A DNA stretch of 43,426 nt, taken from the IMG/VR virus record IMGVR_UViG_3300019458_000014, positions 1-43,426 of that record. The stretch is one strand, 5' to 3'. Both the position numbers and the translations under genes were made by a program. This stretch comes from a virus. Shown piece after piece: positions 7,226 to 43,426 of this stretch; positions within the stretch are counted from its first letter, which is position 1, and every line of letters starts with the position of its first letter. The notes under the pieces are model-generated. The model was not told the origin of the DNA and searched no databases. It saw only the letters and a list, made by a program, of their open reading frames with translations.

Positions 7226-7255
7226 TTGACGTGCAGCGAAGTGCGCGTAGAGAAT
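7226..7255 (+). promoter_or_regulatory. Candidate repressor promoter (TTGACG-18 nt-GAGAAT), ATG 5 nt after -10: leaderless
   Basis: Hexamers read directly. The imperfect palindrome CGCTTGACGTGCAGCG (7223-7238) overlaps -35. No SD. Confidence 0.5.
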
Positions 7256-9822: not shown

Positions 9823-9832
9823 GTCCTCCCCC

Positions 9833-18399: not shown

Positions 18400-19362
18400 T
18401 CAGTTCGCCCCGATGCTCGAGCTGGTCTCGTACCGGATGAGCGAGTTCTCTCGGATCCGGCCGTAGCCCAGGAGGGCGTACCAGCCGACCGAGATGAATC
18501 GCTGCAGGTCGTCGAACGGCCCGGAGATCACCACGTGCTGCGGGTCACCGACGCCCTCGCCGAGGGCCTGCTTGCCCGTGCAGATCGTCGCGTACACGTC
18601 GACGGTTCCGCCCACGCCCGCGTCGACGAAGATCCGCGCGTTGGGGTTCTCCACCCACCGGACCCCACCGAAGGCCCCGATCTCGCCCATGTACAGGGCG
18701 TTCGGGTCGGTGTTGCCGTGTGGGTAGGACCACGCCTGCTGCCCGCTCTCCGCCTGCAGGTCGTAGGACACGTCCGGGTGACCGAACGCGACGTACAGCA
18801 TCGACCCCGGAGGGGGCGGCGTGTTCTTGCCCGCCAAGAACGCCCGGGCCCGGCGGATGTTGTTGCCGGCGAGCGTGTGGCCAGCCGCCACGGTCACCCG
18901 GGAGGTCGCCGCCCCGCCGTAGAGCACGTTGGTCCCGGCGACCAGCACATCGCGAGCGATGAGGTCGACGGACTCCTCCATGTTCTGGGCGATCTCCTGC
19001 GGGACCGCCAGGTCCAGCGACAGGAACGAGGTCAGGCGGAGCTTCCGCGTGTGCTTGACCGCGTTGCCCTGCTCGACCAGGGTCACGGTCTTTTGGGTGT
19101 CGGCCATGTTGACGGCCGCCGGCTCGGTGCCCTCAGCGAGCGCAGTCGTCGCCGGAGCCAGGGCACTGATGAGCGTGAACGTCACAGCGTTGCCAGGCAT
19201 CGGCTCCGCCCCGCGACCACCGGCCCACTTCACGTCCGCCACACGGCGGTACACGAAGCCGGCTCGGAAGGCCATCAGCGCGGCGGTCTGGAACACCGTC
19301 TTTACGGTGTCGCCACCGATGAACCCGGCACCATCGGTTGTAAGCATCGATGGAGCAGGCAT
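18400..19362 (-). CDS. Major capsid protein (HK97-fold type), 320 aa
   Basis: Size, position after the scaffold, strong SD GGGAGGAGGAG. C-terminal FDDLQRFISVGWYALLGYG-type block is typical of HK97-like capsids. Confidence 0.8.
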   Translation of the reverse strand: MPAPSMLTTDGAGFIGGDTVKTVFQTAALMAFRAGFVYRRVADVKWAGGRGAEPMPGNAVTFTLISALAPATTALAEGTEPAAVNMADTQKTVTLVEQGNAVKHTRKLRLTSFLSLDLAVPQEIAQNMEESVDLIARDVLVAGTNVLYGGAATSRVTVAAGHTLAGNNIRRARAFLAGKNTPPPPGSMLYVAFGHPDVSYDLQAESGQQAWSYPHGNTDPNALYMGEIGAFGGVRWVENPNARIFVDAGVGGTVDVYATICTGKQALGEGVGDPQHVVISGPFDDLQRFISVGWYALLGYGRIRENSLIRYETSSSIGAN

Positions 19363-21956: not shown

Positions 21957-22349
21957 CTATCTCCGCCCCATCAGTCGCGCGATCGTAGCGGCGACCTCGG
22001 CGCCCTTGTCACGCCAGTACTGCGTGCGTTCGACGCCCTGACTTCCGAGCAGCGAGTCGTAGATCTCGAAGTCCGACAAGTGCTGGACGTTCTTCCACCA
22101 GCCCTTCGGCGGGAGCCGCCCCCAGACCTCGTAGTAGATGCGCTCCGCCCGCGGCTTGTCGGGATCCTCGGGCTGCGACGCTGGGCCCTGCCCGGCCGCA
22201 ATGATGGCGGCGACATCTTCGGGAGTCAGCTCGAACGCAGGCGGCTGCGTCCCGCTCGTGCCCTCGTCCCCCGGCGTACCAGCCGGGGGCATGCCGGTCG
22301 TCCCGACGCCGTGTCCAGTCGGTCCAAGCTCCTCTGGCCTCGTGCTCAC
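21957..22349 (-). CDS. Hypothetical virion-module protein, 130 aa
   Basis: ORF track. GTGA overlap with the giant gene. Shares the TGHGVGTTGM decapeptide with it. Confidence 0.65.
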   Translation of the reverse strand: MSTRPEELGPTGHGVGTTGMPPAGTPGDEGTSGTQPPAFELTPEDVAAIIAAGQGPASQPEDPDKPRAERIYYEVWGRLPPKGWWKNVQHLSDFEIYDSLLGSQGVERTQYWRDKGAEVAATIARLMGRR

Positions 22350-25300
22350 TCAGGCACCCCCCCGAGGCGATACCAGGTGTTCGGGATGAAGATCTCGAGC
22401 GCGGAGTCCGGCCCGTTCTCCTTGTCGAGCCAATCCCACTCGGCGCGGAACACCGGGGAGGCCTCCCTCAGCTGGTTCACGTAGCTCCTGACCGACTCGA
22501 TCATGGTGCGGTAGGCGATCGCCTTGGTCGCGGTGTCCTCGAGCCCGTGCAGGTCCGCCCGCTCCACCACGCCTTGAACCTGCCGCACAGCGTCAAGCAG
22601 TCCGTCCCAGTACGGGCGCGCCTCCTCGGCTCCGATGAACCCCCACGTGTCGTCGCGTCGGTTGAGGACCTGCTCGAAGCTCCACCCCCAGGTGTTGGCG
22701 TGGGCGACCTGCGCGGCGAACACCGGATCCGCCGCGGTCTGCTGGCGTATCCACGAGTCGAGCGCCGCATAGGCCCTCGTCGAGGAGAAGGCGGGGTCGG
22801 TCGCCTCCTGCTCAGCAATCGCGAGCCGGACCTGCTCGTACATGCCCCAGAGCTGCTCGGCGCCGGCCGAGGTCTGCTCCCCGAGGACGGTCTCGTGGTC
22901 GAACCGGCTGTTGAACTGGTAGGAGCGTGCCACGAGCGAGAGCAGGTAGCCCTCCCTCTCGGACGGTGACCAGGTTTCCCACCGAAGGATCATCGGGTTC
23001 TGCTTGGTCGAGAAGGCGTCATAGGACCCGTTCACCCAGGCACGAAGAGCTGCGTAGGCAGCGTTCCGCTCCTCCTCGGGACCCGAGAGGTCAATCGCGG
23101 CGCGAAGCTCCTCCATCTCGGACCACCACGGGTTGATCTTCTCGTCGTAGGCGGCCTCCGGGATCGCGTCGAGCAGCCGGTCACCGACCGTTCTGACGCC
23201 AGCTTTGAGCGCCCGGTCGAAGAACAGGCGATAGGCCTGCTCGCCCTGAGGGAAAGCGAGTCCGAGGATCTTGAGGCCCTTCTCCCAGTCGGCCACGATG
23301 CCCAGGCGCTCCGCCGTCTTGGACTCGAGCGTTCGGAGGTTCGCCTCCGACAGTCGATCACGGGTGAGGTCGAACAGGGGTAGGAAGCCCCGAAGCCACT
23401 GACCGACCTCGGTCTTGGAGAAGAGCTTGTCCTTCGCAAGCTCGCGGGCGATGGCCATGACCCGACTCTCCACCTGTTCGGACGAGTGGGAGTCGAAATC
23501 GGTCCGCCACGCGGGGTACAGGTCGCGGATCTCCTTGAGCGCGGCGTCGTGGTCGTTCTTGAGCTCGTCGTAGCCGGGATCGCCCTCCCCGATCCGCTGC
23601 TGGGCCAGGGCATCCACGAGCGCCCGATACCGCGCGTCCTCGGTGAAGAACGCGTCCCAGCCGGACTGCCGCTCGCCCTCGGCGATGAACTCCTCTGGCG
23701 AGCGAACGTGTCGCAGCCCCGCGGCGATCTGCGAGAAGAAGATGCCCGGGTCGAACTTGCCCTCCTCGTACAGCTCACGCGGGATGATCGCCCACACCCA
23801 TTCCGGGTGAAGCTGGGCGAACTCGCGGGCGCCCTTGGTCGACAGGAGCTCGGCGACCGCGCGGTTGGCCGGGATCGGGACCGGCGATGCGAGGGGATCG
23901 TTCGGATCGTCCGCGTCCCAGAAGGTTCGGGCGATCGTCATCAGCCGGAGATCCTCGTGCGTGGCCATGAATCGAGTGCGGCCCTCGAGCGGGCCGTGCA
24001 GCTCGATCAGCGATCGGTACTCGCGCTCGAGGTCGACCGTCGGGAACTCGACCTTGGGCGCTGCGGGGAACACCCACGCGAAGAACATCCGCGCCGCTGC
24101 GAGCTTCCGGGACTGCCTGCGAGCGAGCTCGGGGTTCGGCTCAAGGCCCATCGCCTCCTGGAGCTGCAGGAAGTGGGTCGCGTTGAAATCAGCCGTATTC
24201 CGCGCGGTGTCCGGGAAGGCCGTCTCGATCCCGTAGCGGAGCCAGGCCGGGAGCAGGGCCTCTGGCTGGACGACATTGATGTCTCCGAACTGGAAGAGCC
24301 ACGACTCCACGCGTGCTTTCAGCCGAGCGTTCACGTTCGAGGAGGCGAGCCAGTTCTGCATGGCCATCTGGAACGGCGGCGCGAGCGAGGGCACCGGGAT
24401 CGGGAACTCTGTGCCGGCGAAACCCCCGAGGTTCACCGGGAAGGCACCTTGGGCGAACAGGTTGAAGCTCGACAGGTTGGCCATGAGCTCCCACCCGCCG
24501 CCGGCACCGGGCTTGAGCCGTCCCCCGGTGAACGCCGCGAGGAGCGGAGCGGCGCCGGCCCACCACGAGAGCGGGATCACGAGCTCCCCGGTCTCCGGGT
24601 CGCGCTTGACGAACCCCGACTGCATGGCGTTCCGCCCGAGGCGGAGCGCGTGCCCGAGGACCTCGGGGCGCTGACGGATGATCCGCGACCACACGAGCGG
24701 GAACTCGAGGAAGGGCTGCACGAATACCAGGCCGAAGCGGGTCATCTCCTCGAACCGACCGGTCCGCGAGAAGTCGAACATGATGCGCCGGACCTGCGAG
24801 ATGCCCTGCTGCCGTGCGGTCTCGCGGAAGCCGGGTAGCCCCCGCTGGATCTGCTCGGCTGACCACCCCATCTCGCGCGCGTTCTCCACGAGCGAGCGGT
24901 AGGTGACGTCGTACCAGTGCTTGAAGTAGGGCTGGCGCGAAAGCGTATTCGTCGGGGTCTGCAGGATCAGCCGGCCCATGATGTCTCGGGCTCGCTTGAA
25001 CGGTCCAACCTGCCCCGTGAAGAACTCGGCCATCTCGGGGCCGTGCACGAAGAGCGGCTTTTCGCCCTGCGGGATCGCTCTCAGCACGGAGATGTCGAGC
25101 TGGTTCACCGCGGCGGCCGAGGCGAGCTCGGAATGCCCGGCCGTGATGTCCTCGGCGTAGGCGGCCGCCCGGCGGACCTCGAACTCGAGCAGGTCGTCGG
25201 TGACCTCCTCGGCACCGTGCAGCAGGCCCTTCGCGTAGGACGGGCCCTCCCCGCGCGTGTCCTTGAGCCAGCGCATGATGTCGTCGACGATGTCCTCGGT

Positions 25301-28300
25301 GTCCCTACCTCGCCCCACGCTCCCCAGGATGCGATTGCCCATCGGATCCGTCCCGTATTGATGAACCAGCACGTGCCACCAGTAATCGTCGAAGTTGTCC
25401 GCGTCACGACCGATCGCGTCCCAGCGGCCTGGCCGGAGCTGCCCGAACACACGGCGAAGAGCGTCGTCGGATTGGGTGAGCACGTGTGAGGCGGCAGCCC
25501 CGGCGTTCACGAGCTGCTCGTTCGGGATGCCCGGCAGCGCGAACGTCATGATGCCCTCGTCGATCCGCCGCTGGGCCTCGAGCGCCTGGGTCGCGTTCTT
25601 GGCCGCGTCGCCTCGCACCCGGAGCTTTCCGGCGTCGATGCCGATCGCCGCGAGCTGACGCGGGTACGTGGTGGCGATCGTGAGCGCAGCCTGGCGCATC
25701 TGGTCGTCCCACGCCCCGCCCGTGAGGATCACGTCGGCGAGGGCGCCACCCCGGTCTTGGTGGTCCGGGTTGAAGCCGATGTCGTCGATGATCCCCCGGT
25801 GGGTCCGGTCGTTCAGGAACAAGATCGCGTCCTCGAGCTCCTGACCGCGCTGACCTGGCGCCTCCGGGAGCTTGAAGCCGACGGGGAGCCGCTGCGGCTC
25901 GTTCATCCCGAGGCGAGCGAGCAGGGGCCCCGACCGCTTGCCGGTCTGGAGCCGGCGCATGAGCCCGACGGTCGCGAGGAACCGGCTCTGCTCCTCGATC
26001 CCGACCACGCGCAGGATGTATGCCGGGCGGAGCACCGCGAGCGGCTTCCACACGGCGAGGAAGGCCTGCGAGATGAGCAGGTCGGCCGCCCGGTCCACAC
26101 CACGGCGGATCGGCAGGATCGCCTTGGCGGAGCGGGCCGAGGCGATCGCCTCCGTGAGTCGTGCGACCTCGGCGTCGTTGTTCGCCGCCTTCGCCGCCTT
26201 GAGCGCGCGTTCGAGCTCCGGGACGTTGCCGAGGTTCCCGAGGGTCACGCGCTGAGCCCGCGTCCACTTGCGGAGTGTTCCCATGATCTCGGCGATCCCG
26301 AGCTCGTAGAGCACCGGGTCAAGCATCTCGTAGGTGTTGTCGAACTGCGACCGCAGGAACGGCTGGAACTCGCTCGTAACGCTCGTGATGCCCGCCTCGG
26401 CATCCCGGATGGCCTGCTCGAGCGCCTCGCGCTCTTCACGACCGGCGCCCCGAAGCGCCCGCCGGAGGCCCCGGATCCTGATGCGCTCGGCCTCGGTGCC
26501 CGCAAAGGCTGCGAAGGTCTGGCGCCTCCCGCCCGTCCCGCCACCATAGATCTTCTGTAGGTGCTGGACGATGCGAGCCGAGAGCGCCGCGTCGATGCCG
26601 TACTTGGCGTTCTTGCGCTCCCGGATGCGGGCGTTCCACTCGCCCACGACCCGCTTGAAGTCGGTCTCTCTGGTCGGGTTGCGTCGGTCGACGGCGGCCG
26701 CGAACTGCGTCTTGGCTCGAGCGATCTCATCCGGCGAGGCGACCTTGGAGCGGATCAGGGCGCGCTCGAAGTCGCGAACGACATCGGCATCTTCGATCTC
26801 GAACACGATCCGCGATCCGTAGCGACGCGGGTTCGTCTGGGGAAGCGCCCGGATGGTCCGGCCGATGTCGGTGCCGGCGAACTCGGTCGTCCGCAGCCAG
26901 TTGTTGAACCGGGCAAGCGAGGCACCGGTCAGGCGCCCGCCGGCGATATGGGGGATCTCGAGCATCCTGACGACCCCCCCGGCGAAATCAGCCGCCGCGT
27001 CGTCGAGCACCTGCAACGCCTGGCCAGCCTCTCTGGTCCGGCGCTGCGCCGCGGCCGTCGCCGAGGCCGGCACGCCCATCGTGGTCGCGAACGTCCGGTG
27101 AAGCGCCTCGGTCCGCTGGACGCGAAGCACACGGTCAAGCTCCAGGATGTCCTCGGCGAAGGTCCCCGCCTTGGGCCGCACCCCCATCGCCGTTGCGAGG
27201 AGACCACGGATCGCGGCGTCGCGCTGCTCACCCGACAGGCCGAGCTTCCGGGCCGTCCGGTTGAACTCCCAGACCCGGCTCGCCGTAGCGGCGTCGATGC
27301 CCGACCCGACACCGAACCATCGCCGGTAGTTGTTGACAGCGCGGTCGAACATCGCTTCCGGCCGCCGCGCACGGTCGGCCTCGCGACGGAGATACTGCGC
27401 GATCGTCACGTCTTTCAGATCGCCTATCCGGCGAGCCGGCTGATCCAAGAACTGGTTGACGCGCGAGATGTACTCAGCACTCGAGGCCGTGCCGACTCGG
27501 CCCGAGATCAGATGTGAGGCCTTGACGCCCGAGCGCCAGCGCAAGCCCCACATGAGCGGGTCGACCTTGCCGCCAAGGATCAGGTCGGCCACGGCCGTCG
27601 CCCACATCGGCACACCTGCGTCCTCGTGGAGCTCCGTGTACACGTTGGTCCGGCCCAAGATGATGTCCCGGGAGTCGCGAAGGGCCTCCGCGATCCTCGG
27701 CAGGTCCGGCTCGTCCGTGAGGTGATACGACGGGTCAACCAGAGCCCGCGTGTGCCGCCCGATGTCCCCGAACGCGTCGACGACCTCCCCGAACACCACC
27801 CGCTCGATCGCCCCGACCCCCCGCGAAAGCAAGTCCAACGTCGTCCCGACCGATCGACCGACGAACGTGTCAGTGAACGGAAGCTCTGCTCGCTCGGCGA
27901 TCTCCTTGCCCGCCTTGATGTAGTCGGACTGGGCGTCCTCGAGGACCGAGAGCCAGTCGCCAGGAGATGCCAACCCTGAGAGCACGGTCTCCGCGAACCG
28001 CTGTTGGGCCTCGATGCCTCGGATCTGCGACGGGTCGACGTAGCTCGTCTGCTGTGCGCTCTCGAGGGCAAGCTGGGCCGGAGATATCTCCTCCGTCCGA
28101 GGCTTCACCGCCTGCAGCTCACCGGTCCCGGCGAACACGGGTCGGGAGATGGTCTCCTCGTGCATCTTCAAGACCTCGCCGAGCCGAGGGTCCAGGGCGG
28201 TCGCGACGTCCCCGAGCGTGCGGACCTCTCGGCCCCGGAGCGCGGCCTGGTGAGCGGCGGCGACCTGCAACTGCGGGGTGAGCCCGGGGAGCCTCGCCGT

Positions 28301-28915
28301 GTACTCGAGGTTCTCTCGAAGGAGCGCCAGCTCCACGTCCGACCGAGCGATGTCGAGCGCCGCACCCATCGCTTGAACGAGCTCGAACCGTTCCCCCCTG
28401 ACCGGTGCGAACGCACGCAGCACCTTGGCGACGCGGGCCGGGTCGACCACCATCATCCCCGTCGTCCCCACCCCATGACCGGTCGCAGCTGACGGCGGCG
28501 GCTCGGCCTCGGTAAGGATCGACCGCAGGACCCGCCGCACCATGCGGGTCTCGTCGATCGGGTAGAACCGACGCGCGGTCTCGAGCGTGATCGGCCCACC
28601 GGTCACCGGGTCGGTGTACAGACCGGTGTGGAGGCTCGCCACGCCTGTTCGACTCGACACGACCGACGCACGGTAGGGCTCGAACAGGAAGGAAGGATCC
28701 AGGTCGAATCGACGAGACAGAAGCTTGGCCGCTCGGGTGAGGTCCTGGGCGTTCCACTGCGTCTGCGCGAGCGCCAGTGTCATCCGACTCGGGAGCGTGC
28801 CGCGCGAGGCTCGTTCGACGTCGGAGATGCGCCGGGGAACGTCCGCCCGATACAGATCGAGCAGCTCGGGGCTCTCGCGCTGTTCCGCGCGCAGGATCGA
28901 TTCGGGGATCGACAC
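22346..28915 (-). CDS. Giant protein, 2189 aa, unknown function (internal virion / ejection protein candidate)
   Basis: Uninterrupted 6.6-kb ORF with consistent GC3 bias, between portal and scaffold. No enzymatic motif recognised by eye. Confidence 0.85.
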   Translation of the reverse strand: MSIPESILRAEQRESPELLDLYRADVPRRISDVERASRGTLPSRMTLALAQTQWNAQDLTRAAKLLSRRFDLDPSFLFEPYRASVVSSRTGVASLHTGLYTDPVTGGPITLETARRFYPIDETRMVRRVLRSILTEAEPPPSAATGHGVGTTGMMVVDPARVAKVLRAFAPVRGERFELVQAMGAALDIARSDVELALLRENLEYTARLPGLTPQLQVAAAHQAALRGREVRTLGDVATALDPRLGEVLKMHEETISRPVFAGTGELQAVKPRTEEISPAQLALESAQQTSYVDPSQIRGIEAQQRFAETVLSGLASPGDWLSVLEDAQSDYIKAGKEIAERAELPFTDTFVGRSVGTTLDLLSRGVGAIERVVFGEVVDAFGDIGRHTRALVDPSYHLTDEPDLPRIAEALRDSRDIILGRTNVYTELHEDAGVPMWATAVADLILGGKVDPLMWGLRWRSGVKASHLISGRVGTASSAEYISRVNQFLDQPARRIGDLKDVTIAQYLRREADRARRPEAMFDRAVNNYRRWFGVGSGIDAATASRVWEFNRTARKLGLSGEQRDAAIRGLLATAMGVRPKAGTFAEDILELDRVLRVQRTEALHRTFATTMGVPASATAAAQRRTREAGQALQVLDDAAADFAGGVVRMLEIPHIAGGRLTGASLARFNNWLRTTEFAGTDIGRTIRALPQTNPRRYGSRIVFEIEDADVVRDFERALIRSKVASPDEIARAKTQFAAAVDRRNPTRETDFKRVVGEWNARIRERKNAKYGIDAALSARIVQHLQKIYGGGTGGRRQTFAAFAGTEAERIRIRGLRRALRGAGREEREALEQAIRDAEAGITSVTSEFQPFLRSQFDNTYEMLDPVLYELGIAEIMGTLRKWTRAQRVTLGNLGNVPELERALKAAKAANNDAEVARLTEAIASARSAKAILPIRRGVDRAADLLISQAFLAVWKPLAVLRPAYILRVVGIEEQSRFLATVGLMRRLQTGKRSGPLLARLGMNEPQRLPVGFKLPEAPGQRGQELEDAILFLNDRTHRGIIDDIGFNPDHQDRGGALADVILTGGAWDDQMRQAALTIATTYPRQLAAIGIDAGKLRVRGDAAKNATQALEAQRRIDEGIMTFALPGIPNEQLVNAGAAASHVLTQSDDALRRVFGQLRPGRWDAIGRDADNFDDYWWHVLVHQYGTDPMGNRILGSVGRGRDTEDIVDDIMRWLKDTRGEGPSYAKGLLHGAEEVTDDLLEFEVRRAAAYAEDITAGHSELASAAAVNQLDISVLRAIPQGEKPLFVHGPEMAEFFTGQVGPFKRARDIMGRLILQTPTNTLSRQPYFKHWYDVTYRSLVENAREMGWSAEQIQRGLPGFRETARQQGISQVRRIMFDFSRTGRFEEMTRFGLVFVQPFLEFPLVWSRIIRQRPEVLGHALRLGRNAMQSGFVKRDPETGELVIPLSWWAGAAPLLAAFTGGRLKPGAGGGWELMANLSSFNLFAQGAFPVNLGGFAGTEFPIPVPSLAPPFQMAMQNWLASSNVNARLKARVESWLFQFGDINVVQPEALLPAWLRYGIETAFPDTARNTADFNATHFLQLQEAMGLEPNPELARRQSRKLAAARMFFAWVFPAAPKVEFPTVDLEREYRSLIELHGPLEGRTRFMATHEDLRLMTIARTFWDADDPNDPLASPVPIPANRAVAELLSTKGAREFAQLHPEWVWAIIPRELYEEGKFDPGIFFSQIAAGLRHVRSPEEFIAEGERQSGWDAFFTEDARYRALVDALAQQRIGEGDPGYDELKNDHDAALKEIRDLYPAWRTDFDSHSSEQVESRVMAIARELAKDKLFSKTEVGQWLRGFLPLFDLTRDRLSEANLRTLESKTAERLGIVADWEKGLKILGLAFPQGEQAYRLFFDRALKAGVRTVGDRLLDAIPEAAYDEKINPWWSEMEELRAAIDLSGPEEERNAAYAALRAWVNGSYDAFSTKQNPMILRWETWSPSEREGYLLSLVARSYQFNSRFDHETVLGEQTSAGAEQLWGMYEQVRLAIAEQEATDPAFSSTRAYAALDSWIRQQTAADPVFAAQVAHANTWGWSFEQVLNRRDDTWGFIGAEEARPYWDGLLDAVRQVQGVVERADLHGLEDTATKAIAYRTMIESVRSYVNQLREASPVFRAEWDWLDKENGPDSALEIFIPNTWYRLGGVPE

Positions 28916-31544: not shown

Positions 31545-33755
31545 CTAGCGGCGCGTCAAGCCGGCGAGCCGCTCCTCGGCCCATCTCGGGGCGGGCTGGC
31601 GCATCCGCTGGGAGACCCACGAGATCTGGTCGTCGTCGTCGTAGTCGTCGGCGGCCGCCTCCGCGGCCAGATGCGCGACGAGCAGGGGATCGGATCGGAA
31701 CGCGTAGAACCAGTGACCCATCACGAGGTCCCACGTCGAGCCCTCCGGCCAGGCGCAGGCCTCCTTGATGAACTGGTCGGCGAACGCCCGCTCCTCGCCG
31801 CCACCGTACGGGATCCGCACGCGCCCGAACTGGTAGATGGGGCCCAGCATCTCGACGCCGCGATCGGGGTCGGGCTTGGTCTGCTTGGTCGTCGAGTGCG
31901 GCACGAGCGCGACGCCGCGCTCGGAGCACCAGGTCTGCACGAACTCGTACTGGGTGAGCCAGCGTTGCTGCGATTGATGCTCGACCACGAGGTAGGTCGG
32001 TAGCACCCCCTCGCCTTCGTCGCGCGCCGCCTCGTACCACTCGTGGAGCAGGCCGCTGTAGGTTCCGTCGGGGTTCCGATAGAGCAGGTCGGGCGCCTGC
32101 ATGATGGCACGCTTGCCCCGGTAAACCTGGTGAACGCGATCGGCCCATCCGACGATGTGCTGGACCGACCACCACTTCGCGCCCGACGGGTCGACGGTGA
32201 TCATCGAAAGCGCCGGGGCCTCGGGCCGGAACAGTTGGCCGAAGCGGAGCCCGTGCTCGAGGCACCCCGGGGAGATCGCGCCTTTGGAGTCGCGACCGCC
32301 CTCGAACCAGACGCGCTGTGCCAGGAAGCCCACGGGATCCACGTCGGCCTGTTGCCACACGAGCTCGAATCGCCGGCTGTTGCCCATCGCCTTCCGCAGC
32401 CGCCGCCAGGACGTCCGCACAGGATCGAGCAGGCACCCATCGGGCCACGGCCCGCCGTGCGTGAGCTTCACACGGCCATCGACCTCGGCCCGCTCGCAGC
32501 GGCTCTCGTCGTGTGCCGGGAGCGCGATGTGCTCGTAGATTGGCCGGGGCTGGCCGAGCTCGTCCGTCTCCTCATCGTCGAGCTGCTGACGGACCTGCCA
32601 CGACAGGTCCTCCGGCCCGTAGCGCGCGTTCGACAGCACGAGCAGGCCATCGGGTTCGAGGCGTGTCTCGGCCTCCTGATCCCACCAGTCGAACATCTTC
32701 TCGCGCTGGTCGGCGTTCGCGGCATTGGACTTGTCGATCAGGTCGTCCCAGACCATCACGTCGGGTCTGACCGACAGGATCGACTTCTCGTAGGAGGCCG
32801 AGTTGAACGTCGCCTCCTTCTGCTGCAGATCCGACCAGCGGAGCGGCTGTACGTCCAGAGCCTCGTTCGACCACCGAGTGCCGGCGCGGTCGGGCTTGAA
32901 CCGCCCGTATCGTCGGATCAGCTCGGCGTTGGACTCCATCGTCCGCCGGAGCCGGTGGATGTAGAGCTTCGCCTTGTCGTCGGACCGGTGCCCGAGCACG
33001 AACACGAGCTCGATGCCCTTGGACCGCACCAGGGTCTCGAGCCAGAGACACCAGTCATGGGTGATGACGGTCGACTTGCCGAGACCCGGGTTGAAGTTGC
33101 AGACCGCATACTGCTCGCCCGGCATGAAGAAGAGCTCCGTCAGACGGGTTGCGCACATCGTCGCCCACGGCGGCGAGGAGCGACCGAAGATCTCCGGGCG
33201 AAACAGCGCGAAGTCGTCGAGCACCGTGCGCGACTCGTCGTCGAGCTCGTCGTAGGGGATCGGGTCGTTCGACTTGGCCCGCGCGAGCTTCGCGAGCTGC
33301 TCGTCCGTGGTGGCCTCGAGCTCACCCTCCTTCCGCCACTTGGCCCGCCAGCGCTCCACGGTGTCGACGCTCATCACCATCATCTCGGCGACGTAGACCG
33401 CCGTGTGACCCTCGCGCAGCATCGCCAGGACCTCGGGGCCAATCTTGGCCCGGTCGGCTCGGCGGATCTTGCGGTTCGGCGGCGGTGCCGGCGTGGCCGG
33501 ACGACCGAACGTCGGCTTCGGCGGCAGGCCGTCGGGCATCGGGGGGAGCTCGTCGGGTGCGTGATACTCGCCAAGACGGAAGTTGAACTGCCGGCGGGCC
33601 CTCGCGTCGTGAACCCACTTCTCGCACGCGCCGCGACTCACCGTTCCCCTGAGCTCGAGTTCCTCCCAGAGCCTCGCCACGCCGATCTTACCCTTGCGCT
33701 CCGCGTAGGTGGTGAGGAAGGCATCGCGGATCTCGCGTGGGATGATCTTCGGCAT
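31545..33755 (-). CDS. terL: Terminase large subunit with about 190-aa N-terminal double-HTH (small-subunit-like) extension, 736 aa
   Basis: Walker A NFNPGLGKST, Walker B PDVMVWDDLID. HTH-like segments in the N-terminal part. No separate small-subunit ORF seen. Confidence 0.8.
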   Translation of the reverse strand: MPKIIPREIRDAFLTTYAERKGKIGVARLWEELELRGTVSRGACEKWVHDARARRQFNFRLGEYHAPDELPPMPDGLPPKPTFGRPATPAPPPNRKIRRADRAKIGPEVLAMLREGHTAVYVAEMMVMSVDTVERWRAKWRKEGELEATTDEQLAKLARAKSNDPIPYDELDDESRTVLDDFALFRPEIFGRSSPPWATMCATRLTELFFMPGEQYAVCNFNPGLGKSTVITHDWCLWLETLVRSKGIELVFVLGHRSDDKAKLYIHRLRRTMESNAELIRRYGRFKPDRAGTRWSNEALDVQPLRWSDLQQKEATFNSASYEKSILSVRPDVMVWDDLIDKSNAANADQREKMFDWWDQEAETRLEPDGLLVLSNARYGPEDLSWQVRQQLDDEETDELGQPRPIYEHIALPAHDESRCERAEVDGRVKLTHGGPWPDGCLLDPVRTSWRRLRKAMGNSRRFELVWQQADVDPVGFLAQRVWFEGGRDSKGAISPGCLEHGLRFGQLFRPEAPALSMITVDPSGAKWWSVQHIVGWADRVHQVYRGKRAIMQAPDLLYRNPDGTYSGLLHEWYEAARDEGEGVLPTYLVVEHQSQQRWLTQYEFVQTWCSERGVALVPHSTTKQTKPDPDRGVEMLGPIYQFGRVRIPYGGGEERAFADQFIKEACAWPEGSTWDLVMGHWFYAFRSDPLLVAHLAAEAAADDYDDDDQISWVSQRMRQPAPRWAEERLAGLTRR

Positions 33756-34793: not shown

Positions 34794-35345
34794 TCACCCC
34801 ACGCACTGCCCGGTGACGTGCGTGGTATGGGTCTCGATGTTCTGGATCGTGTCGGCAGCGGAGTCGTGGAAGTGGATCAGCTCATCGACGCCGGAGCCAC
34901 CGTTGATGAAGTCCGCACCGCAGCCAGCCAGGATCAGGTCGGTTCCATTATCGCCGTAGAGCGAGTCGGCAGACTGCCCATTCATGCCGATCCTATAGCC
35001 CTCGTAGAGGTCGTCGTTCCCGGCATTGCCGTGGATCGTGTCGCCGCCCGCACCACCCCAGATCCAATCCCCGCCGTCGCCACCGTGCACGACGTCGCCG
35101 AACTGCCCTGACTCCACGTTGTCCCAGCCACCGAACATCTGCCAGTTGGAAGCGGCCGATCCTGCGGTCCCATGAACCTCGCCCACGCACTCGTCGCCTG
35201 AGCCTCCTACCCCCGTCGGGGCGTTGCTGTGAACCAACGTCTGGTTGAACTCGTCCCTGCACGGACCTTGATGAGCCGAGGCGACGCTCGCCCCGAGCGC
35301 CACCACACCGAGCACCACGAGCAGATAACCGAGCCGCCTGAACAT
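34794..35345 (-). CDS. Secreted RTX-type calcium-binding repeat protein, 183 aa
   Basis: Signal peptide MFRRLGYLLVVLGVVALGASVASA. Six GGxGxDxUx-like nonapeptides (GGDGGDWIW, GGAGGDTIH, GNAGNDDLY, GDNGTDLIL, GCGADFIN, GGSGVDELI). SD GAGGAGG. Upstream in-frame Met codons are possible. Confidence 0.75.
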   Translation of the reverse strand: MFRRLGYLLVVLGVVALGASVASAHQGPCRDEFNQTLVHSNAPTGVGGSGDECVGEVHGTAGSAASNWQMFGGWDNVESGQFGDVVHGGDGGDWIWGGAGGDTIHGNAGNDDLYEGYRIGMNGQSADSLYGDNGTDLILAGCGADFINGGSGVDELIHFHDSAADTIQNIETHTTHVTGQCVG

Positions 35346-35630
35346 CCGTCGCCTCCTCGAGCTCCGGGCGGCCCCCCGACGCCCGAGGGCCCTCATGCCG
35401 GCCCGAGAACCCCAGCCGGCGACCATGCCGCCCCGCCGAGGTCGTCGCCTCGTACCGGACTTCGGGTGACCCCGGACCCCGGAGGATCCGCCACCTAGCG
35501 AACCGAGGGACCCGCGGAGCCGAGATCCGAGCTTCTGGGGGCTCGGGCCCCCCCGACGCCAGATCACCGGGAGGGCGCCTCCGCCCCGCGAGCACCTACC
35601 TGGTACGCATTCCAAGGCTCGCGCGGGCGG

Positions 35631-38937: not shown

Positions 38938-39042
38938 TCACGCAGGGTCTCCCGCGATTCGAACGCTTCCAGCGTACAGCATCCTGCACGTCCCGGCTCC
39001 TCGGCACTCATCGCAGCGCGTCTCGAGAAGCGGTACGCTCAT
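38938..39042 (-). CDS. Micro-protein, 34 aa, with DnaJ-type CxxCxGxG motif
   Basis: MSVPLLETRCDECRGAGTCRMLYAGSVRIAGDPA*. ATGA overlap with the upstream gene. Confidence 0.4.
   Translation of the reverse strand: MSVPLLETRCDECRGAGTCRMLYAGSVRIAGDPA
38971..38990. promoter_or_regulatory. Operator-like 20-mer AGCGTACAGCATCCTGCACG, copy B
   Basis: 19 of 20 nt identical to 38133-38152. 65 nt upstream of ATG 38906. Confidence 0.45.
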
Positions 39043-39677
39043 GACCTCACCACCCGGAGGCCCTGACGCTCGGCCACGTTGCGCGCGTTCGCCTCGTAGC
39101 CGGCGAGCAGACGGTCGGCGATCTCGTGCAAGTGCCTCCCGACGTCGCGGTTGCCCTCCGTCCCGTTCCGGTCGGCCACGGCGATCTGCTCGTCTGCTTG
39201 GGCGCGGATACTGACGGCGGCGGCGAGCTCGTGGCCGTCCTCCAGCCGATAGACGCGCCGACAACCGTTGCACCGCGCAACCCCGACCATCCGGCCCCCG
39301 CGCCATGCTTGCTGAATCAGCGCGGCCGGCCCACCGTACCCGTTGCGGTGGATATGGAAGGGCTGAGGTTCCGGCCCCTCGGGGCATTGCAGGCTCGTCA
39401 GATAGCCGTTCCGAGCCGTGAACTGAACGGTTCCATGCTCGATCTCGGCCGGCTGCTCGAATCCCCACAGCGTAAGGCCCCGGTCGTAGGGGTCGAACCC
39501 GCCCGGCGCCACGTCGTCCTCGTCGGGGAACGGGAACCGGAAACGCACCGCGGCGAGCGTCTCGGGGTTGAACGTGTAGCCGTCGATTCGCCCGACCTGA
39601 TCGGCCCGCAGGTAGTACAGGTCCTCGCAGGTTCCGATCTTGACCTGGCGCCCTCCCAGCTTCGCGTATTCGCCCAT
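39039..39677 (-). CDS. Hypothetical protein, 212 aa (MGEYAKLGGRQVKIGTCEDLYYLRADQ N-terminus)
   Basis: ORF 39039..39719, start moved to ATG 39677 (coupled to the micro-ORF). Confidence 0.65.
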   Translation of the reverse strand: MGEYAKLGGRQVKIGTCEDLYYLRADQVGRIDGYTFNPETLAAVRFRFPFPDEDDVAPGGFDPYDRGLTLWGFEQPAEIEHGTVQFTARNGYLTSLQCPEGPEPQPFHIHRNGYGGPAALIQQAWRGGRMVGVARCNGCRRVYRLEDGHELAAAVSIRAQADEQIAVADRNGTEGNRDVGRHLHEIADRLLAGYEANARNVAERQGLRVVRS

Positions 39678-39745
39678 CACTGCACCCCTTCCCGGTTCGT
39701 CCATCCGCACCAGCGGCAACGACAGTTCGGAAAGTCCTCATTCAT
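39677..39745 (-). CDS. Micro-ORF, 22 aa (MNEDFPNCRCRWCGWTNREGVQ)
   Basis: Strong SD GGAGGAAGGG 7 nt upstream. ATGA/TGATG coupling on both sides. Confidence 0.3.
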   Translation of the reverse strand: MNEDFPNCRCRWCGWTNREGVQ

Positions 39746-39876
39746 GGTCGGACCCTTCCTCCGTGATAGCGGCCGCCACAGCGACACTCGCAGCGCGGCC
39801 CTCGGGCGTTCCAACAGGGCGCCGTGCAGGTTGCCGCCGAGCGGATGCGCCGGATGAGCCGCCGAAGGACCCGCAT
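39742..39876 (-). CDS. Micro-ORF, 44 aa, Arg/Cys-rich
   Basis: Hand translation MRVLRRLIRRIRSAATCTAPCWNARGPRCECRCGGRYHGGRVRP*. Coupled at both ends. Confidence 0.3.
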   Translation of the reverse strand: MRVLRRLIRRIRSAATCTAPCWNARGPRCECRCGGRYHGGRVRP

Positions 39877-40085
39877 CAGGCGTCCCTCCCGACGGCGTGA
39901 ACGACGACCCGCCACACGTCCGAGCGGCGGAATAGCTCGTCGGCCCGCCGGCCAGCCCGTCGGATCACGTCGGCCGCGTCGGGGTTCCCCGCGATCAGCT
40001 CGACGACCCGTGTACGGGTATCGAATCCGAGGGCTCGCACCACTCGCCCCCGTCGCGCGCCTTGCGCGTGTCGTACGTTGTCCAT
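39876..40085 (-). CDS. Hypothetical protein, 69 aa, first gene of the leftward operon
   Basis: ORF track. SD GGGGGAGGAG upstream of ATG 40085. Confidence 0.55.
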   Translation of the reverse strand: MDNVRHAQGARRGRVVRALGFDTRTRVVELIAGNPDAADVIRRAGRRADELFRRSDVWRVVVHAVGRDA

Positions 40086-40171: not shown

Positions 40172-40201
40172 TTGACGCCCTATCCGTCGGCGTGCGAGAA
40201 T
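40172..40201 (+). promoter_or_regulatory. Candidate promoter TTGACG-18 nt-GAGAAT, ATG 7 nt after -10 (leaderless); same hexamers and spacing as the repressor promoter
   Basis: Read directly. No SD before ATG 40209. Confidence 0.5.
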
Positions 40202-40208
40202 CGCCGTC

Positions 40209-40508
40209 ATGCGATCGCTGCTCTACCCAGAGAAGCGCCGGCTGCGCGACGCTTACAAGCGCCGTGTGCGTGCAGAGGCCGACGTCGACCGGCAACTGCT
40301 CGAGTACGCGACCGACGGAGTGCCCTACTCCGAGCTCGCGGCCGTGCTCGAGATCACCAAGTCGGCCGTCGGGCAGCGACTCGCCGTGATCCGGGGTCGG
40401 GCGGTCGGTGGCGCCGCCGACCAGGGCTCCGCATCTCATCCGCAGGGTTCGCCCGCGGGCGGGGCCCGGCCCGACCCCGACCTGTCCGAGCGGCGCGGCC
40501 CTAGCTAG
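40209..40508 (+). CDS. Small HTH protein, sigma-70 region-4 / LuxR-like, 99 aa
   Basis: VPYSELAAVLEITKSAVGQRLAVIRGR HTH pattern. Confidence 0.65.
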   Translation: MRSLLYPEKRRLRDAYKRRVRAEADVDRQLLEYATDGVPYSELAAVLEITKSAVGQRLAVIRGRAVGGAADQGSASHPQGSPAGGARPDPDLSERRGPS

Positions 40509-40511
40509 GCG

Positions 40512-40880
40512 ATGGCACCGCGGCACCCCTCGGGCCCTCTCGTGCTGGCGGCTCTTTCCGTCGAGCTTGGGCGGGCAGTCCCGACGACCACCGTCGCCCG
40601 GCGGGTCGGTCACGCCGGCAGCCAATATGAGATCCGGCTCGTCCGTGAGGTCCTGTACGCCCTCTACATGGCCGGGCTCTGTGAGAAGCCCATGGGGCGC
40701 AGGCTCCGGTGGACGCTGACGACTCTTGGATGGCGCGCCGCCAGCACCGACGGAATGGACCACTCGGTCGCCTACTGGCAGCGGAAGTCACGTGATGCGT
40801 ATCACGTGATCCGCACCCTCGAGACGTACATCCGCACCCTCGAGGACGCGCTGTACCCGATGCGCCAAGTCGAGGCCTGA
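40512..40880 (+). CDS. Winged-helix DNA-binding protein, 122 aa
   Basis: LAALSVELGRAVPTTTVARRVG...LVREVLYALYMAGLCEKP...RWTLTTLG is a wHTH pattern. Confidence 0.6.
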   Translation: MAPRHPSGPLVLAALSVELGRAVPTTTVARRVGHAGSQYEIRLVREVLYALYMAGLCEKPMGRRLRWTLTTLGWRAASTDGMDHSVAYWQRKSRDAYHVIRTLETYIRTLEDALYPMRQVEA

Positions 40881-40881
40881 G

Positions 40882-41436
40882 ATGGTTGCCCGCAGACTCC
40901 CGAAGCCCTTCACCCCGGCGGAGCTCCGCGCGCTGTTCGCCACTTCGGATCCGGTCGCCGTCGCCGCGATGCGATTCCTGCACGCGACCGGGATGCGGTC
41001 GGCCGAGGCCCTTTCGATCACCAGCACCGAGGCGGAGACCTGGCCTCGCCCGGGCGTGCTCCGGCGACGGACACACGCGACGCGTATCACCGGAAAGGGG
41101 GGCAAAGAGCGCGTCGTGCTCCTGAACCCCAAGGCACTCGCCTCCGCGCGTCTGGCGCTCAGCGCGTCAGCAGCAAACGGCCATCTGTTCGGGTTCTCAG
41201 ACCGCCAGCTCCGCCGTCTGGTCGCACGGGCCGGTCTCGAGGCCGGCGTCGAGCGCGCCCACCCCCACCGGTTCCGCCACACGTACTGTTCCGAGCACGC
41301 CGAGGCCGGCACCGATATCGCGATCGTCGCCGATATGGCCGGGCATTCATCCGTCAACACGACGAGGCTCTATTACGAGTCAAGCGTTCGGGCTCGGAGC
41401 GTCGCCGAGCGGCGGCGGCGGCGGTTCACCCACTGA
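40882..41436 (+). CDS. Tyrosine recombinase, catalytic domain only, 184 aa
   Basis: ATGMRSAEAL (Arg), GKGGKERVV (Lys), HRFRHTY (HxxR), MAGHSSVNTTRLYY (His, Tyr). Only about 25 residues precede the catalytic domain. Confidence 0.8.
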   Translation: MVARRLPKPFTPAELRALFATSDPVAVAAMRFLHATGMRSAEALSITSTEAETWPRPGVLRRRTHATRITGKGGKERVVLLNPKALASARLALSASAANGHLFGFSDRQLRRLVARAGLEAGVERAHPHRFRHTYCSEHAEAGTDIAIVADMAGHSSVNTTRLYYESSVRARSVAERRRRRFTH

Positions 41437-41676
41437 TCCCGTCCTCTCCGGCCGGACCGTGAGCCGGTCCTCCCACCCTGTCTCGGGCACGATTGCCAGC
41501 AAGCGTGTGCGGTCGAACTCGAGCGTCGCGATGTGCTCGGCGCCCCCCTCCTCGTTCGTCCTATCCCGCTCGTGGTAGCAGATCCCCTCGACCAGCATCA
41601 ACACCCGCTGGCCCTTGTGGACCCGGATCGGCGACGTCAGATCGCGGATCGGCCGGGACTCGATGACCTCACGCAT
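41380..41676 (-). CDS. Hypothetical protein, 98 aa
   Basis: ORF 41380..41694 with ATG 41676 (8-nt overlap upstream). 3' end overlaps the recombinase gene convergently. Confidence 0.55.
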   Translation of the reverse strand: MREVIESRPIRDLTSPIRVHKGQRVLMLVEGICYHERDRTNEEGGAEHIATLEFDRTRLLAIVPETGWEDRLTVRPERTGSVGEPPPPPLGDAPSPNA

Positions 41677-41884
41677 ACTGGCCGCCATGTCCACAGCGAC
41701 AGTCGCCCTCGTTCACGACCCTCAGCCGGCGCCGAACGACCACCCGGACCGAGCCATCAGCGAATCTAACGAGCTGGCCTCCACGCCCGACGACGCACCG
41801 GCCATCGGGGCGTCGGATCGGTTCGCACCGCTGGCCGATGAGGGCCGAGGCGGTCTCGCGCGTGCCGAGGTAGACGTACCTCAC
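41669..41884 (-). CDS. Hypothetical protein, 71 aa
   Basis: ORF track. GTGA overlap with the WhiB-like gene. Confidence 0.55.
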   Translation of the reverse strand: MRYVYLGTRETASALIGQRCEPIRRPDGRCVVGRGGQLVRFADGSVRVVVRRRLRVVNEGDCRCGHGGQYA

Positions 41885-42462
41885 GGCACGGGCTCGTAGG
41901 TCGCCTCGAAGATGTCCGGCTTGCGTAGTCGTCGACGTGCTGTCCGCACACTGACCCCGTGCTCCTCTGCGTAGAGCGCGGCCGGACCCTTGTGGCCACG
42001 TCCGGGGCCGGGCCGCAGGTCAAAAGCGGACACAGGCCACTCGAGCGGATCGACGATCCTCCACGTCCCGCTCGTTGCCGAGCGGCGCGCGAGCGCCAGC
42101 GCCATCCGCAGCCGACGGCCAGGGTCGACGCTCCGGCTGCGTACCGTCCGCCGCTCGGCTTGGGTGAGACCGCCCCAGATCCCCGGCTGCTCTCGGGCGA
42201 GCCCCTGCACCGTGCACTCGAGCCGCACCGGGCAGAACGCGCAGACAACGCGCGCCTGCCGAACGGCCAGGCGCTCCGGCCACTCCCGAGCCGGATAGAA
42301 CCACGTCGCCGACGCCCTCGAGGCATCGGCGCACGAGGCCTCCGAGCGCCACGACTCCGCCCGGAGGCCCGCCACGTGAGCGAGCAGCTCGTCGGCGCTC
42401 GCCACACGATCGGCCACGGTCGGTCCACGAGGGACCACGGGCACCAGGTGTATCGCCGTCAC
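41881..42462 (-). CDS. WhiB-like (Wbl) Fe-S transcription factor with about 90-aa C-terminal HTH-like extension, 193 aa
   Basis: C...CAFCPVRLEC four-Cys pattern followed by GIWGGLTQAERR, the Wbl signature. Confidence 0.8.
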   Translation of the reverse strand: MTAIHLVPVVPRGPTVADRVASADELLAHVAGLRAESWRSEASCADASRASATWFYPAREWPERLAVRQARVVCAFCPVRLECTVQGLAREQPGIWGGLTQAERRTVRSRSVDPGRRLRMALALARRSATSGTWRIVDPLEWPVSAFDLRPGPGRGHKGPAALYAEEHGVSVRTARRRLRKPDIFEATYEPVP

Positions 42463-42710
42463 TCGTCCTTCCCGAAGGCCTCGAGCCAGGCCTCCGCCTC
42501 GCTCTCGAAGCCAGGCCGGATGTCACCGAGCAGCGTTATGGGGTCCTGCGGGTGATCCCAGCGGCGGCGGGGATTCTCGATGAAGGCGGGCGGGGGGAAG
42601 GGCTTCGGGGGTCCGTCGTTCAGGCTCCACTCCCGCGTGACCAGCGAGCCGTCGGCCCGGGTCCACTCGACACGGATCACCGGCATCGCGAACGGATCGG
42701 GTCGGGTCAC
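42459..42710 (-). CDS. Hypothetical protein, 83 aa
   Basis: C-terminal part of ORF 42459..42806. GTGA overlaps at both ends. Confidence 0.55.
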   Translation of the reverse strand: MTRPDPFAMPVIRVEWTRADGSLVTREWSLNDGPPKPFPPPAFIENPRRRWDHPQDPITLLGDIRPGFESEAEAWLEAFGKDE

Positions 42711-43138
42711 CCGCAACTCCACGGACCCCACCCGCCGGCGTGCGCCATCCGGATCGACACAATCACGTTCGTCCTCCCGTTGTAGACACCCCTGAACATC
42801 TCCCATCGGTCACGGATGTAGAGCTCGACGCGACCGGCCCAGTACGGCAGCCGATGCTGGAAGACTCCCCCATTGCCGTTGCCGTAGGCATCGGGTCTGA
42901 GCCCCGACTCGCACCGAGCGACCTCGAGCGCCTTGGCCGCCCCGCCGGGCACCGGCCAGATACGGACGGCGCAGCGAATCAGCGTCGCGACCGGGCGCAC
43001 GTCGTGGCGCTCGTAGTAGGGACGCTGCCAGTGGATCGGGCACGGGCCTCGTTTGTGATGGGCTTCGGCTCGTATGGACATCATTGGGATCATCGTCAGG
43101 GTCAGGAACAACACGGTCATAACTCGTCGATTTCGCAT
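42707..43138 (-). CDS. Secreted transglycosylase-like (lysozyme-like, CESG motif) protein, 143 aa
   Basis: Signal peptide MRNRRVMTVLFLTLTMIPMMSIRAEA. ALEVARCESGLRPDAYGNGNGGVFQHRLPYW resembles SLT/Rpf-type catalytic blocks. SD GGAGGTGA. Confidence 0.6.
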   Translation of the reverse strand: MRNRRVMTVLFLTLTMIPMMSIRAEAHHKRGPCPIHWQRPYYERHDVRPVATLIRCAVRIWPVPGGAAKALEVARCESGLRPDAYGNGNGGVFQHRLPYWAGRVELYIRDRWEMFRGVYNGRTNVIVSIRMAHAGGWGPWSCG

Positions 43139-43196: not shown

Positions 43197-43406
43197 CTAG
43201 CGGTCGGTCACGTCTTGACGATCACCCCCTCGACTTCCGCTCAAGGGTCGGAACCACCAGTAGCGGAACCTCACGTCTGGCGTCCCGGCATCACGCAGCA
43301 CAGGCCGGACCTCGCGGAACACGCCGACCAGTCGCTCAACGTATGCCTCCGGGGTCGGTTCGAGCCCGATCTGTTCGGGCACGCCGTAATCTTGCTTGGG
43401 CGTCAT
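43197..43406 (-). CDS. 69-aa ORF resembling an internal segment of N6/N4 DNA methyltransferases (probable remnant); spans the terminal repeat
   Basis: GLEPTPEAYVERLVGVFREVRPVLRDAGT resembles the block after the DPPY motif, but no DPPY or SAM-binding motif is present. Confidence 0.4.
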   Translation of the reverse strand: MTPKQDYGVPEQIGLEPTPEAYVERLVGVFREVRPVLRDAGTPDVRFRYWWFRPLSGSRGGDRQDVTDR

Positions 43407-43426
43407 CGTGGGCTCCGCTCACCTAC
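43304..43426. repeat. Terminal direct repeat, copy 2 (identical to 1..123)
   Basis: Direct comparison. Confidence 0.95.

Follow-up and report, generated by a model that had tools for sequence, protein, structure and literature searches.

A catalytic-domain-only tyrosine recombinase coupled to a helix-turn-helix gene in a temperate actinobacterial-type phage and its uncultured relatives

Why a temperate phage should carry, in addition to an integrase, a second tyrosine recombinase of only 184 amino acids (aa) is the question raised by IMG/VR record IMGVR_UViG_3300019458_000014, a stretch of 43,426 nucleotides (nt) that was analysed at its full length and is here called the window. The gene for this mini-recombinase is the last of three open reading frames (ORFs), the first of which encodes a 99-aa helix-turn-helix (HTH) protein and the second a 122-aa protein. 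An earlier note, made from the DNA sequence, had described the three as a second recombinase cassette, and they do constitute a genuine cassette with its own strong, leaderless promoter of the repressor-promoter class. It had also proposed that the 122- and 184-aa ORFs were either the two pieces of one recombinase or a frameshifted gene, and neither proposal stood up. The pair formed by the HTH gene and the recombinase gene was found to be conserved in related uncultured phages and is therefore a real module and not a broken or split integrase. We lean towards the reading that the module supplies an active, catalytic-domain-only recombinase together with an HTH accessory factor or regulator, that it is expressed from the prophage and that it carries out an intramolecular or single-site reaction.

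The three ORFs were recovered as described, including the junction TGA-g-ATG that leaves 1 nt between the 122-aa and 184-aa genes, and all have the signature of high-GC coding DNA, with a GC content of 0.83 at third codon positions and a low value at second positions. The observation that the 184-aa protein has every catalytic residue of a tyrosine recombinase and no core-binding domain was also borne out. It matched PF00589 with E=7e-21 over profile positions 4-169 of 172, there was no match to Phage_int_SAM, the N-terminal core-binding domain being absent, and the profile of its clade aligned with archaeal XerA at residues 99-276 and with XerD at residues 105-282, beginning at the inter-domain linker and taking in the catalytic domain. 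Structure prediction of the 184-aa ORF, recommended in the earlier note, was carried out with AlphaFold2 (AF2) from 17 homologues and gave a model with a predicted local distance difference test score (pLDDT) of 89.4 and a predicted TM score of 0.88. Foldseek matched this model with probability 1.00 to XerH, the integrase of mycobacteriophage Brujita (5vfz), XerA (TMq 0.71) and IntI, and the predicted structure thereby confirmed the fold of a tyrosine recombinase catalytic domain.

A search for homologues of the 184-aa protein that covered 5.8 billion proteins delimited a discrete clade of 17 proteins, mostly of 181-205 aa (full range 155-253 aa), the outliers being one 155-aa fragment and three members with an unrelated N-terminal extension of ~40-70 aa. 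Members of the clade scored at least 123 bits against at most 71 bits for ordinary Xer-like proteins of 270-320 aa, with a gap between the two, and their identity to the window protein was 42-69% by pairwise BLASTP and 46-68% in the clade alignment. The residues R39, K72, H129, R132, H155 and Y164 were invariant across the 17 members and the N-terminus M-x-x-RRLPKPFT was conserved; at the level of sequence the mini-recombinase was shown to be catalytically intact and under purifying selection. In one subgroup of the clade (L007 10001-10579, L106 394-954 and L109; proteins P0006, P0008 and P0014) the catalytic GKG-x-KER hairpin is directly preceded by a Cys-rich insertion, W-C-x4-C-x2-H. This insertion, which may bind metal, is absent from the window protein.

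Ten loci were found with an HTH gene first and a mini-recombinase gene last (the window, W, and L001, L003, L004, L007, L106, L108, L186, L188 and L191), and the layouts of those that are compared here are given in Table 1. The module was shown to consist of a leaderless promoter, the HTH gene, 0-3 variable small genes and the mini-recombinase gene, the last being translationally coupled to whichever gene stands before it, and to be conserved in a clade of uncultured temperate siphophages of high GC content and actinobacterial type. Its orientation was always opposite to that of the phage genes on either side, and as a rule it was flanked on one side by a DnaN-like or 226-aa gene and on the other by a conserved gene of 65-160 aa. 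The full-length integrase-repressor cassette is its direct neighbour in L003 and L110, and the module is therefore part of the lysogeny region. The HTH protein is the co-conserved, constant partner of the mini-recombinase. When a large protein database was searched with the HTH profile, all homologues at E<=1e-10 headed mini-recombinase cassettes, and L191 was a new locus found in this way.

That the 122- and 184-aa ORFs might be the halves of one ordinary integrase of ~306 aa, separated by a frameshift or sequencing error, was suggested by their summed length of 306 aa and by their lying 1 nt apart in different frames. Relatives were examined for a fused version of the gene, but what they have instead is a short gene with the same N-terminus. 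The short form starting at RRLPKPFT is kept in 17 proteins from independent samples, and L186, L007 and L106 have no 122-aa gene, the first of these three being the nearest relative of the window by HTH identity. Clean coding signatures also run right to the stops of both ORFs, the C-terminal 47 codons of the 122-aa gene having a coding GC pattern of 0.64/0.45/0.87. Furthermore neither SAM-like core-binding domains nor the N-terminal part of the window's integrase resembled the 122-aa protein, and its homologues are free-standing proteins of ~80 aa (77-83 aa). A frameshift is so improbable that it can for practical purposes be set aside, and a caution for annotation follows, namely that such gene pairs are not to be 'repaired' as frameshifted or broken integrases.

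The last two findings also count against the other proposal, in which the 122-aa protein, taken as a winged-helix protein, is a separate DNA-binding (core-binding) subunit of the 184-aa enzyme. This idea draws on the tight coupling of the two genes at TGA-g-ATG and on L001, where the 77-aa homologue precedes the recombinase gene with an overlap of 4 nt. However, the 122-aa gene is present in only two of the ten loci (the window and L001), the slot being occupied elsewhere by a lipoprotein-like ORF, Cys-rich (Zn-ribbon-like) ORFs, acidic helical proteins or nothing at all. An exhaustive HMMER search added just two further homologues, of 79 and 83 aa, which were 50-52% identical over residues 3-71, and both of these (P0115 and P0117), which are two of the four known homologues, lie amid small genes of the same strand with no recombinase nearby. 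The 122-aa protein had no match in Pfam, PHROG or NCBIfam; it is winged-helix-like by sequence pattern only, and its single-sequence AF2 model was poor (pLDDT 55). A two-piece enzyme of this kind is most improbable, and the 122-aa gene was shown to be lineage-specific cargo that lies outside the conserved module.

Two observations on this slot and its surroundings were made in the relatives. In L004 the ~70 N-terminal residues by which the 253-aa clade member P0007 (10001-10762) is extended are paralogous to the 111-aa ORF adjacent upstream (9666-10001), which suggests that fusion of upstream cargo domains to the recombinase can occur. Directly 3' of the mini-recombinase gene in L001 (9148-10750) and L004 (10770-11220) there are lower-GC arrays of paralogous small minus-strand genes, whose 5' regions, including the Shine-Dalgarno (SD) sequence, are repeated over ~30-67 nt; there is no such array in the window.

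Table 1. Positions of features in the window and layouts of related loci; the entries for related loci list the promoter, where given, and then the genes in order
Feature	Position	Strand	Remarks
Cassette promoter	40172-40201	+	TTGACG-N18-(TGc)GAGAAT; sigma-70/SigA-type
99-aa small HTH protein	40209-40508	+	Sigma region 4 / HTH_23 / RelI-like; conserved first gene of the module
122-aa protein	40512-40880	+	~75-aa domain and 45-aa helical C-terminal extension unique to the window
Local repeats in the extension of the 122-aa protein	40787-40844	+	
184-aa tyrosine recombinase	40882-41436	+	Catalytic domain only; basic C-terminal tail (RRRRR)
Catalytic codon R39	40996-40998		
Catalytic codon K72	41095-41097		
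Catalytic codon H129	41266-41268		
Catalytic codon R132	41275-41277		
Catalytic codon H155	41344-41346		
Catalytic codon Y164	41371-41373		
Repressor promoter (twin)	7226-7255	+	TTGACG-N18-GAGAAT; 5' of the leaderless repressor gene
XRE-type repressor	7261-7575	+	First cassette; overlaps the integrase gene
299-aa simple integrase	7572-8471	+	First cassette
Major head protein	18400-19362	minus	
Large terminase	31545-33755	minus	
Locus L186			TTGACG-17-GAGGAT-7-ATG; HTH (70% identical), 9 nt, recombinase (64% identical)
Loci L007, L106			HTH and recombinase overlapping by 4 nt
Locus L001			TTGACA-17-TAGGCT-8-ATG; HTH, 77-aa homologue of the 122-aa protein, recombinase
Locus L188			TTGACA-17-CAGACT-6-ATG; HTH, 49-aa Cys-rich ORF, recombinase
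Locus L191			HTH, 53 aa, 75 aa, recombinase
Locus L004			TTGACA-17-GAGAAT-9-ATG; HTH, 113 aa, 111 aa, recombinase with N-terminal extension paralogous to the 111-aa protein
Locus L003			HTH, 83 aa, 87 aa, 63-aa lipoprotein-like ORF, recombinase

The promoter of the cassette had been described as a near copy of the repressor promoter. The same hexamers and spacing were indeed found at both places, each 5-7 nt before an ATG. In the cassette TTGACG (40172-40177) and GAGAAT (40196-40201) are separated by an 18-nt spacer and ATG 40209, which has no SD sequence, follows the -10 element at a distance of 7 nt, and in the twin TTGACG lies at 7226-7231 and GAGAAT at 7250-7255, with ATG 7261 (5 nt on) or 7264 as the start. 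Hexamers, spacing and class are identical, but the spacers are unrelated and outside the shared elements the twins have in common only a 'GC' before the -35 element; judged by their letters they are two promoters of one class and not a copied sequence. With at most one mismatch the 30-nt pattern occurs exactly twice in the 43.4 kb, against 0.08 expected from shuffles, none of 100 of which reached two, and a genome-wide scan for the sigma-70 consensus gave three matches, the two promoters and one within a coding region. The predicted transcript should begin at or beside ATG 40209 and would be a leaderless mRNA. The position of the promoter is kept in five loci (the window, L001, L004, L186 and L188), and a leaderless first gene is therefore a trait of the family.

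The product of this first gene, which ends in a disordered Gly/Pro/Ser tail, had been called a sigma-region-4-like HTH protein. The ORF stood, but its own Pfam match, to Sigma70_r4_2 with E=0.003 only, was under the cut-off, and members of its family matched HTH_23 (9.5e-7), Sigma70_r4 (6.6e-5), Sigma70_r4_2 and HTH_7. In an alignment of nine sequences an Arg-rich helix and a second helix are followed by G-x-S-x3-(I/L)A-x2-LG(I/V)SRQ-x-V-x2-RL. No similarity of the HTH to Xis, HTH_17 or DUF3653 was detected. The profile of the family also matched RelI (PDB 9sdc) with E=1e-5 over 57-61 residues, and RelI (Rv2664)/ClpC2-type proteins constitute a small HTH family specific to Actinomycetes (PMC13284704). 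The similarity is modest, and RelI is the antitoxin of a RelE-like RNase whereas no such toxin is present at the cassette.

The match to an antitoxin nevertheless brings up a reading of the module as a toxin-antitoxin (TA) or abortive-infection-like system, in which the RelI-like HTH protein would restrain a mini-recombinase whose nicking activity is released against superinfecting DNA. Such a reading would suit the TA-like layout and size of the pair, its constitutive leaderless promoter and its orientation opposite to the neighbouring genes, as well as the RelI match itself. PADLOC, however, returned no match, the presence of unrelated genes between the partners is atypical for TA pairs, and the enzyme keeps the full set of catalytic residues competent for religation. 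To our knowledge no tyrosine-recombinase toxin has been described, and this reading is very unlikely.

Comparison with known recombinases pointed to two groups. The best matches in sequence and structure were to Xer proteins, first XerA 4a8e (E=7e-21) and then XerD and XerH, and all the catalytic residues are shared with them. Xer enzymes have an N-terminal core-binding domain of ~100 aa, whereas the mini-recombinase is without it and is phage-encoded, and although XerA, XerC and XerD were its nearest NCBIfam families, its scores of 74.5, 70.9 and 60.5 bits stayed far below their respective cut-offs of 220, 335 and 330. Catalytic-domain-only recombinases are known from the Fim family, whose members depend on the accessory DNA-binding proteins IHF and Lrp. 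FimB and FimE (NF007370/NF007371) are like the mini-recombinase in having ~200 aa, the catalytic domain only and a basic tail after the nucleophile Tyr. By hhalign, residues 10-175 were colinear with residues 13-186 of the 200 residues of Escherichia coli FimB (probability 91%, E=1.1e-6), and with FimE the BLASTP match was 1e-10 over the C-terminal third. Colinearity with the whole of FimB indicates that the mini-recombinase has the catalytic-domain-only architecture of the Fim type. It differs from FimB and FimE in being closer to Xer, phage-borne, from a high-GC host and paired with a dedicated HTH gene, and here too the scores were below the cut-offs (32.2 bits against 222 for NF007371 and 23.9 against 221 for NF007370).

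The likeness to FimB raises the question of whether the enzyme inverts a segment of DNA. It might be a Fim-type invertase that flips a nearby promoter segment, such as the divergent region at 40.05-40.25 kb, and so switches expression of the late operon or of the cassette. Consistent with this are the FimB-like architecture, the position of the cassette right beside the beginning of the late operon, an operon without its own sigma-70-like promoter, and a weak inverted repeat, 40051-40072 / 40230-40251, that brackets the promoter. Against it, this repeat is only 73% complementary with a perfect core of 8 bp, which is the chance level in DNA of 68% GC, no equivalent is conserved in L001, L186, L003, L004 or L007, and the orientation is identical in all relatives. 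The repeat was accordingly rejected as a site, and short inverted repeats of the Fim type near the cassette were found at chance level only, none of them conserved and no orientation variants being seen. An invertase of this kind is distinctly unlikely.

The statement in the earlier note that no convincing inverted repeats mark a target was upheld by repeat and palindrome scans, in which no inverted or direct repeat around the cassette was both above background and conserved. A search of seven loci for a dif-like site among palindromes with 4-10-nt spacers, up to 700 bp either side of the cassette, gave no common site. That no repeated pair of sites was found fits a single-copy site. Several candidates were examined and rejected. 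The best inverted repeat touching the cassette, 40893-40919 / 42589-42615 (23/27), is probably due to chance; both arms encode PKPF, one in the N-terminus of the recombinase and the other in a 115-aa ORF (42459-42806), nothing corresponds to it in L001 or other relatives, and repeats of 20-23 nt are frequent in the background. The motif CATCGGGAT(A) flanks the L186/L187 cassette, one copy preceding it and two tandem copies following the stop codon, and was compared with the window at 40153(+) and 40856(-), but the shared core is just 7 nt, the genome has 21 hits against ~10 expected and the motif is not general. Within the C-terminal extension of the 122-aa protein there are two ATCACGTGAT-type palindromes with 14 nt between them and two exact copies of ATCCGCACCCTCGAG, 21 nt apart, that encode the duplicated peptide IRTLE. 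These repeats are found nowhere else in the genome, are absent from the relatives and are probably a coding duplication; they were rejected as a recombination target, being part of a window-specific coding extension with no partner site or second copy, although they might serve for binding.

How the second enzyme relates to the first is a separate matter. In the first cassette of the window the stop TGA of the repressor gene and the start GTG of the integrase gene share bases, the repressor gene is leaderless, and the 299-aa integrase consists of a SAM-like core-binding domain and a catalytic domain, being arm-less and Xer-like. This arrangement resembles the repressor-int layout of the mycobacteriophages BPs and Brujita, in which immunity depends on integration (PMC4557955, PMC3694055). 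The second cassette mimics the same layout with a leaderless HTH gene followed by a recombinase gene, and the Brujita integrase is among the top structural matches of the mini-recombinase. Unlike the latter, however, the Brujita enzyme keeps its core-binding domain, and the HTH protein of the second cassette is not a repressor of the XRE type. To have two tyrosine recombinases was thought unusual for such a phage; it is rare, but it has been documented (PMC13097055, PMC4982277, PMC9584220). Arthrobacter phages of cluster FF and the Gordonia phages Bowser and Oregano have two tyrosine integrases, the second of which was left unexplained (PMC13097055, PMC12766476, PMC4982277, PMC9584220). These phages, of ~40-47 kb, have both tyrosine recombinase genes where gene orientation switches, as does the window. 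The second enzyme of the window consists of the catalytic domain only and is coupled to an HTH gene, and no close sequence relation to isolated phages was detected (no megablast match and a best tblastn identity of at most 33%).

One possible explanation is that the mini-recombinase is a partner of the main integrase, either as the second member of a XerC/XerD-like hetero-tetramer with the 299-aa integrase at attP/attB or as a modulator of directionality, with the HTH protein acting like Xis. Both enzymes are Xer-like simple recombinases, in L003 and L110 their genes lie side by side in convergent orientation, the identical promoter hexamers suggest co-expression, and a small DNA-binding gene overlapping a recombinase gene matches the classical xis-int layout. 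In the window, however, the cassettes are ~9 kb apart by the shorter way round the circle and 32 kb by the other, no site sequence common to both was found, the enzymes are only 31% identical over 93 aa, and co-occurrence with a full integrase could be checked in three genomes only. A partnership of this sort is unlikely.

The reading that we favour remains that of an active catalytic-domain-only recombinase served by the HTH protein. In this scheme the mini-recombinase would act, by analogy with FimB and FimE, on a short simple site without arm sites and would depend on accessory DNA-binding proteins, with the HTH protein as the dedicated accessory or regulatory factor. The HTH protein may bring the enzyme to its target, or may fix the directionality or activate the enzyme in the manner of Xis or XafT, and it may also, or instead, autoregulate the operon. 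The module resembles the lambda-type xis-int operons and the arrangement of XafT of TLCphi in having a small DNA-binding gene directly upstream of or overlapping the recombinase gene. XafT also provides a precedent for the activation or direction of a Xer-type enzyme by an HTH protein (PMC9226527). The Xis-type architecture, on the other hand, makes use of an arm-binding domain, which the mini-recombinase does not have. The operon would most likely be expressed from the prophage and early in infection, because its promoter is of the class of the repressor promoter and its orientation is like that of lysogeny-expressed 'moron' genes. The reaction would more likely be one on phage DNA, such as multimer resolution, circularisation or local inversion, rather than a second chromosomal integration, and a single-site or intramolecular reaction is favoured because no repeated pair of sites was found and because the enzyme is clamp-less.

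A number of points weigh against this scheme. No recombination site was found, the search for palindromes and inverted or direct repeats common to the relatives being negative, and there was no inversion between relatives, which are colinear and in the same orientation. Expression in lysogeny would follow from the class of the promoter only. The HTH protein could be a plain autorepressor, and the analogy with FimB and FimE is architectural, because membership by sequence fails. Furthermore no partition genes were noticed in the part of the ORF set that was scanned against family libraries, which leaves a role in the resolution of a plasmid prophage without positive support. It is also possible, if doubtful, that the module is a natural split recombinase, in which the HTH protein would provide sequence-specific DNA recognition in trans, replace the core-binding domain and recruit or activate the catalytic-only enzyme, the intergenic slot being a hotspot for cargo. 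Were this so, the pair would represent a kind of two-component arrangement that has not been described among tyrosine recombinases and that could serve, by exchange of the DNA-binding module, as a programmable system.

No description was found of a phage-borne, Xer-like clade of catalytic-domain-only enzymes constantly paired with a sigma-4/RelI-like HTH protein behind a leaderless promoter. Second tyrosine recombinases of actinophages have been noted repeatedly and never explained, and here one of them is seen to belong to a discrete HTH-coupled family that constitutes a concrete, testable unit of two genes. If the HTH protein targets or activates the enzyme, the module would show how a recombinase works without a DNA-clamping domain outside the Fim system, and could provide a very small recombinase (~185 aa) for high-GC hosts.

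The GC content of the window is 68%, and its terminal 123 nt are identical (1-123 = 43304-43426), which leaves a unique length of 43,303 bp; the genome is complete, as a circularly closed or terminally redundant assembly. The start of a methylase-like ORF (MTPKQDYGVPEQIG...) straddles the junction of the two ends. Besides the head and terminase genes in Table 1 the products include a RecT-like protein, an HTH_36 replication-type protein and WhiB, and the phage is a temperate siphophage with a host of actinobacterial type. There was no close relative among 185,579 GTDB species genomes, and neither a prophage nor a host or attB was identified there; a search of IMG/VR for relatives of the main integrase likewise gave nothing close. 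The window contains no tRNA genes and had no match in Rfam.

Transcription is nearly all leftward, with two rightward islands at 7261-8471 and 40209-41436. The second of these, the cassette, falls exactly where the early genes end (41380-41694, minus strand) and the late-side genes begin (39876-40085 and 39039-39719, minus strand). At its far end the 3' end of the recombinase gene shares 57 nt (41380-41436) with that of a convergent 104-aa ORF, and between the two genes there is no terminator-like hairpin (fold z=+0.96). The tail of the 104-aa ORF may be a read-through extension, because the homologous part stops sooner in the relatives, and the cassette and the early operon are likely to be transcribed towards each other. 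On the other side a non-coding stretch of 141 nt (39742-39881) is 83% identical to L001 7539-7678, as compared with ~70% for the flanking coding DNA, and on the minus strand it terminates in GGAGGAAGGG-N7-ATG. It was rejected as a feature of the module, being shared with L001 only and not found in more distant relatives. It had no Rfam match, and the late operon probably has its leader or promoter here.

Three other observations concern the remainder of the genome. A 273-aa protein (34794-35615) has RTX calcium-binding nonapeptide repeats (PF00353, E=2e-8), and the sole match of a 2189-aa ORF on the minus strand (22346-28915) is a weak one in PHROG. On the minus strand a repeat of ~24-33 nt, (GGGATACAG)CATGACCGATAGACGGGAGGAAGG, stands directly 5' of three small early ORFs (289-312, ~470-501 and 657-689), two of the copies being exact 24-mers against none expected, and recalls the start-associated sequences of cluster K mycobacteriophages.

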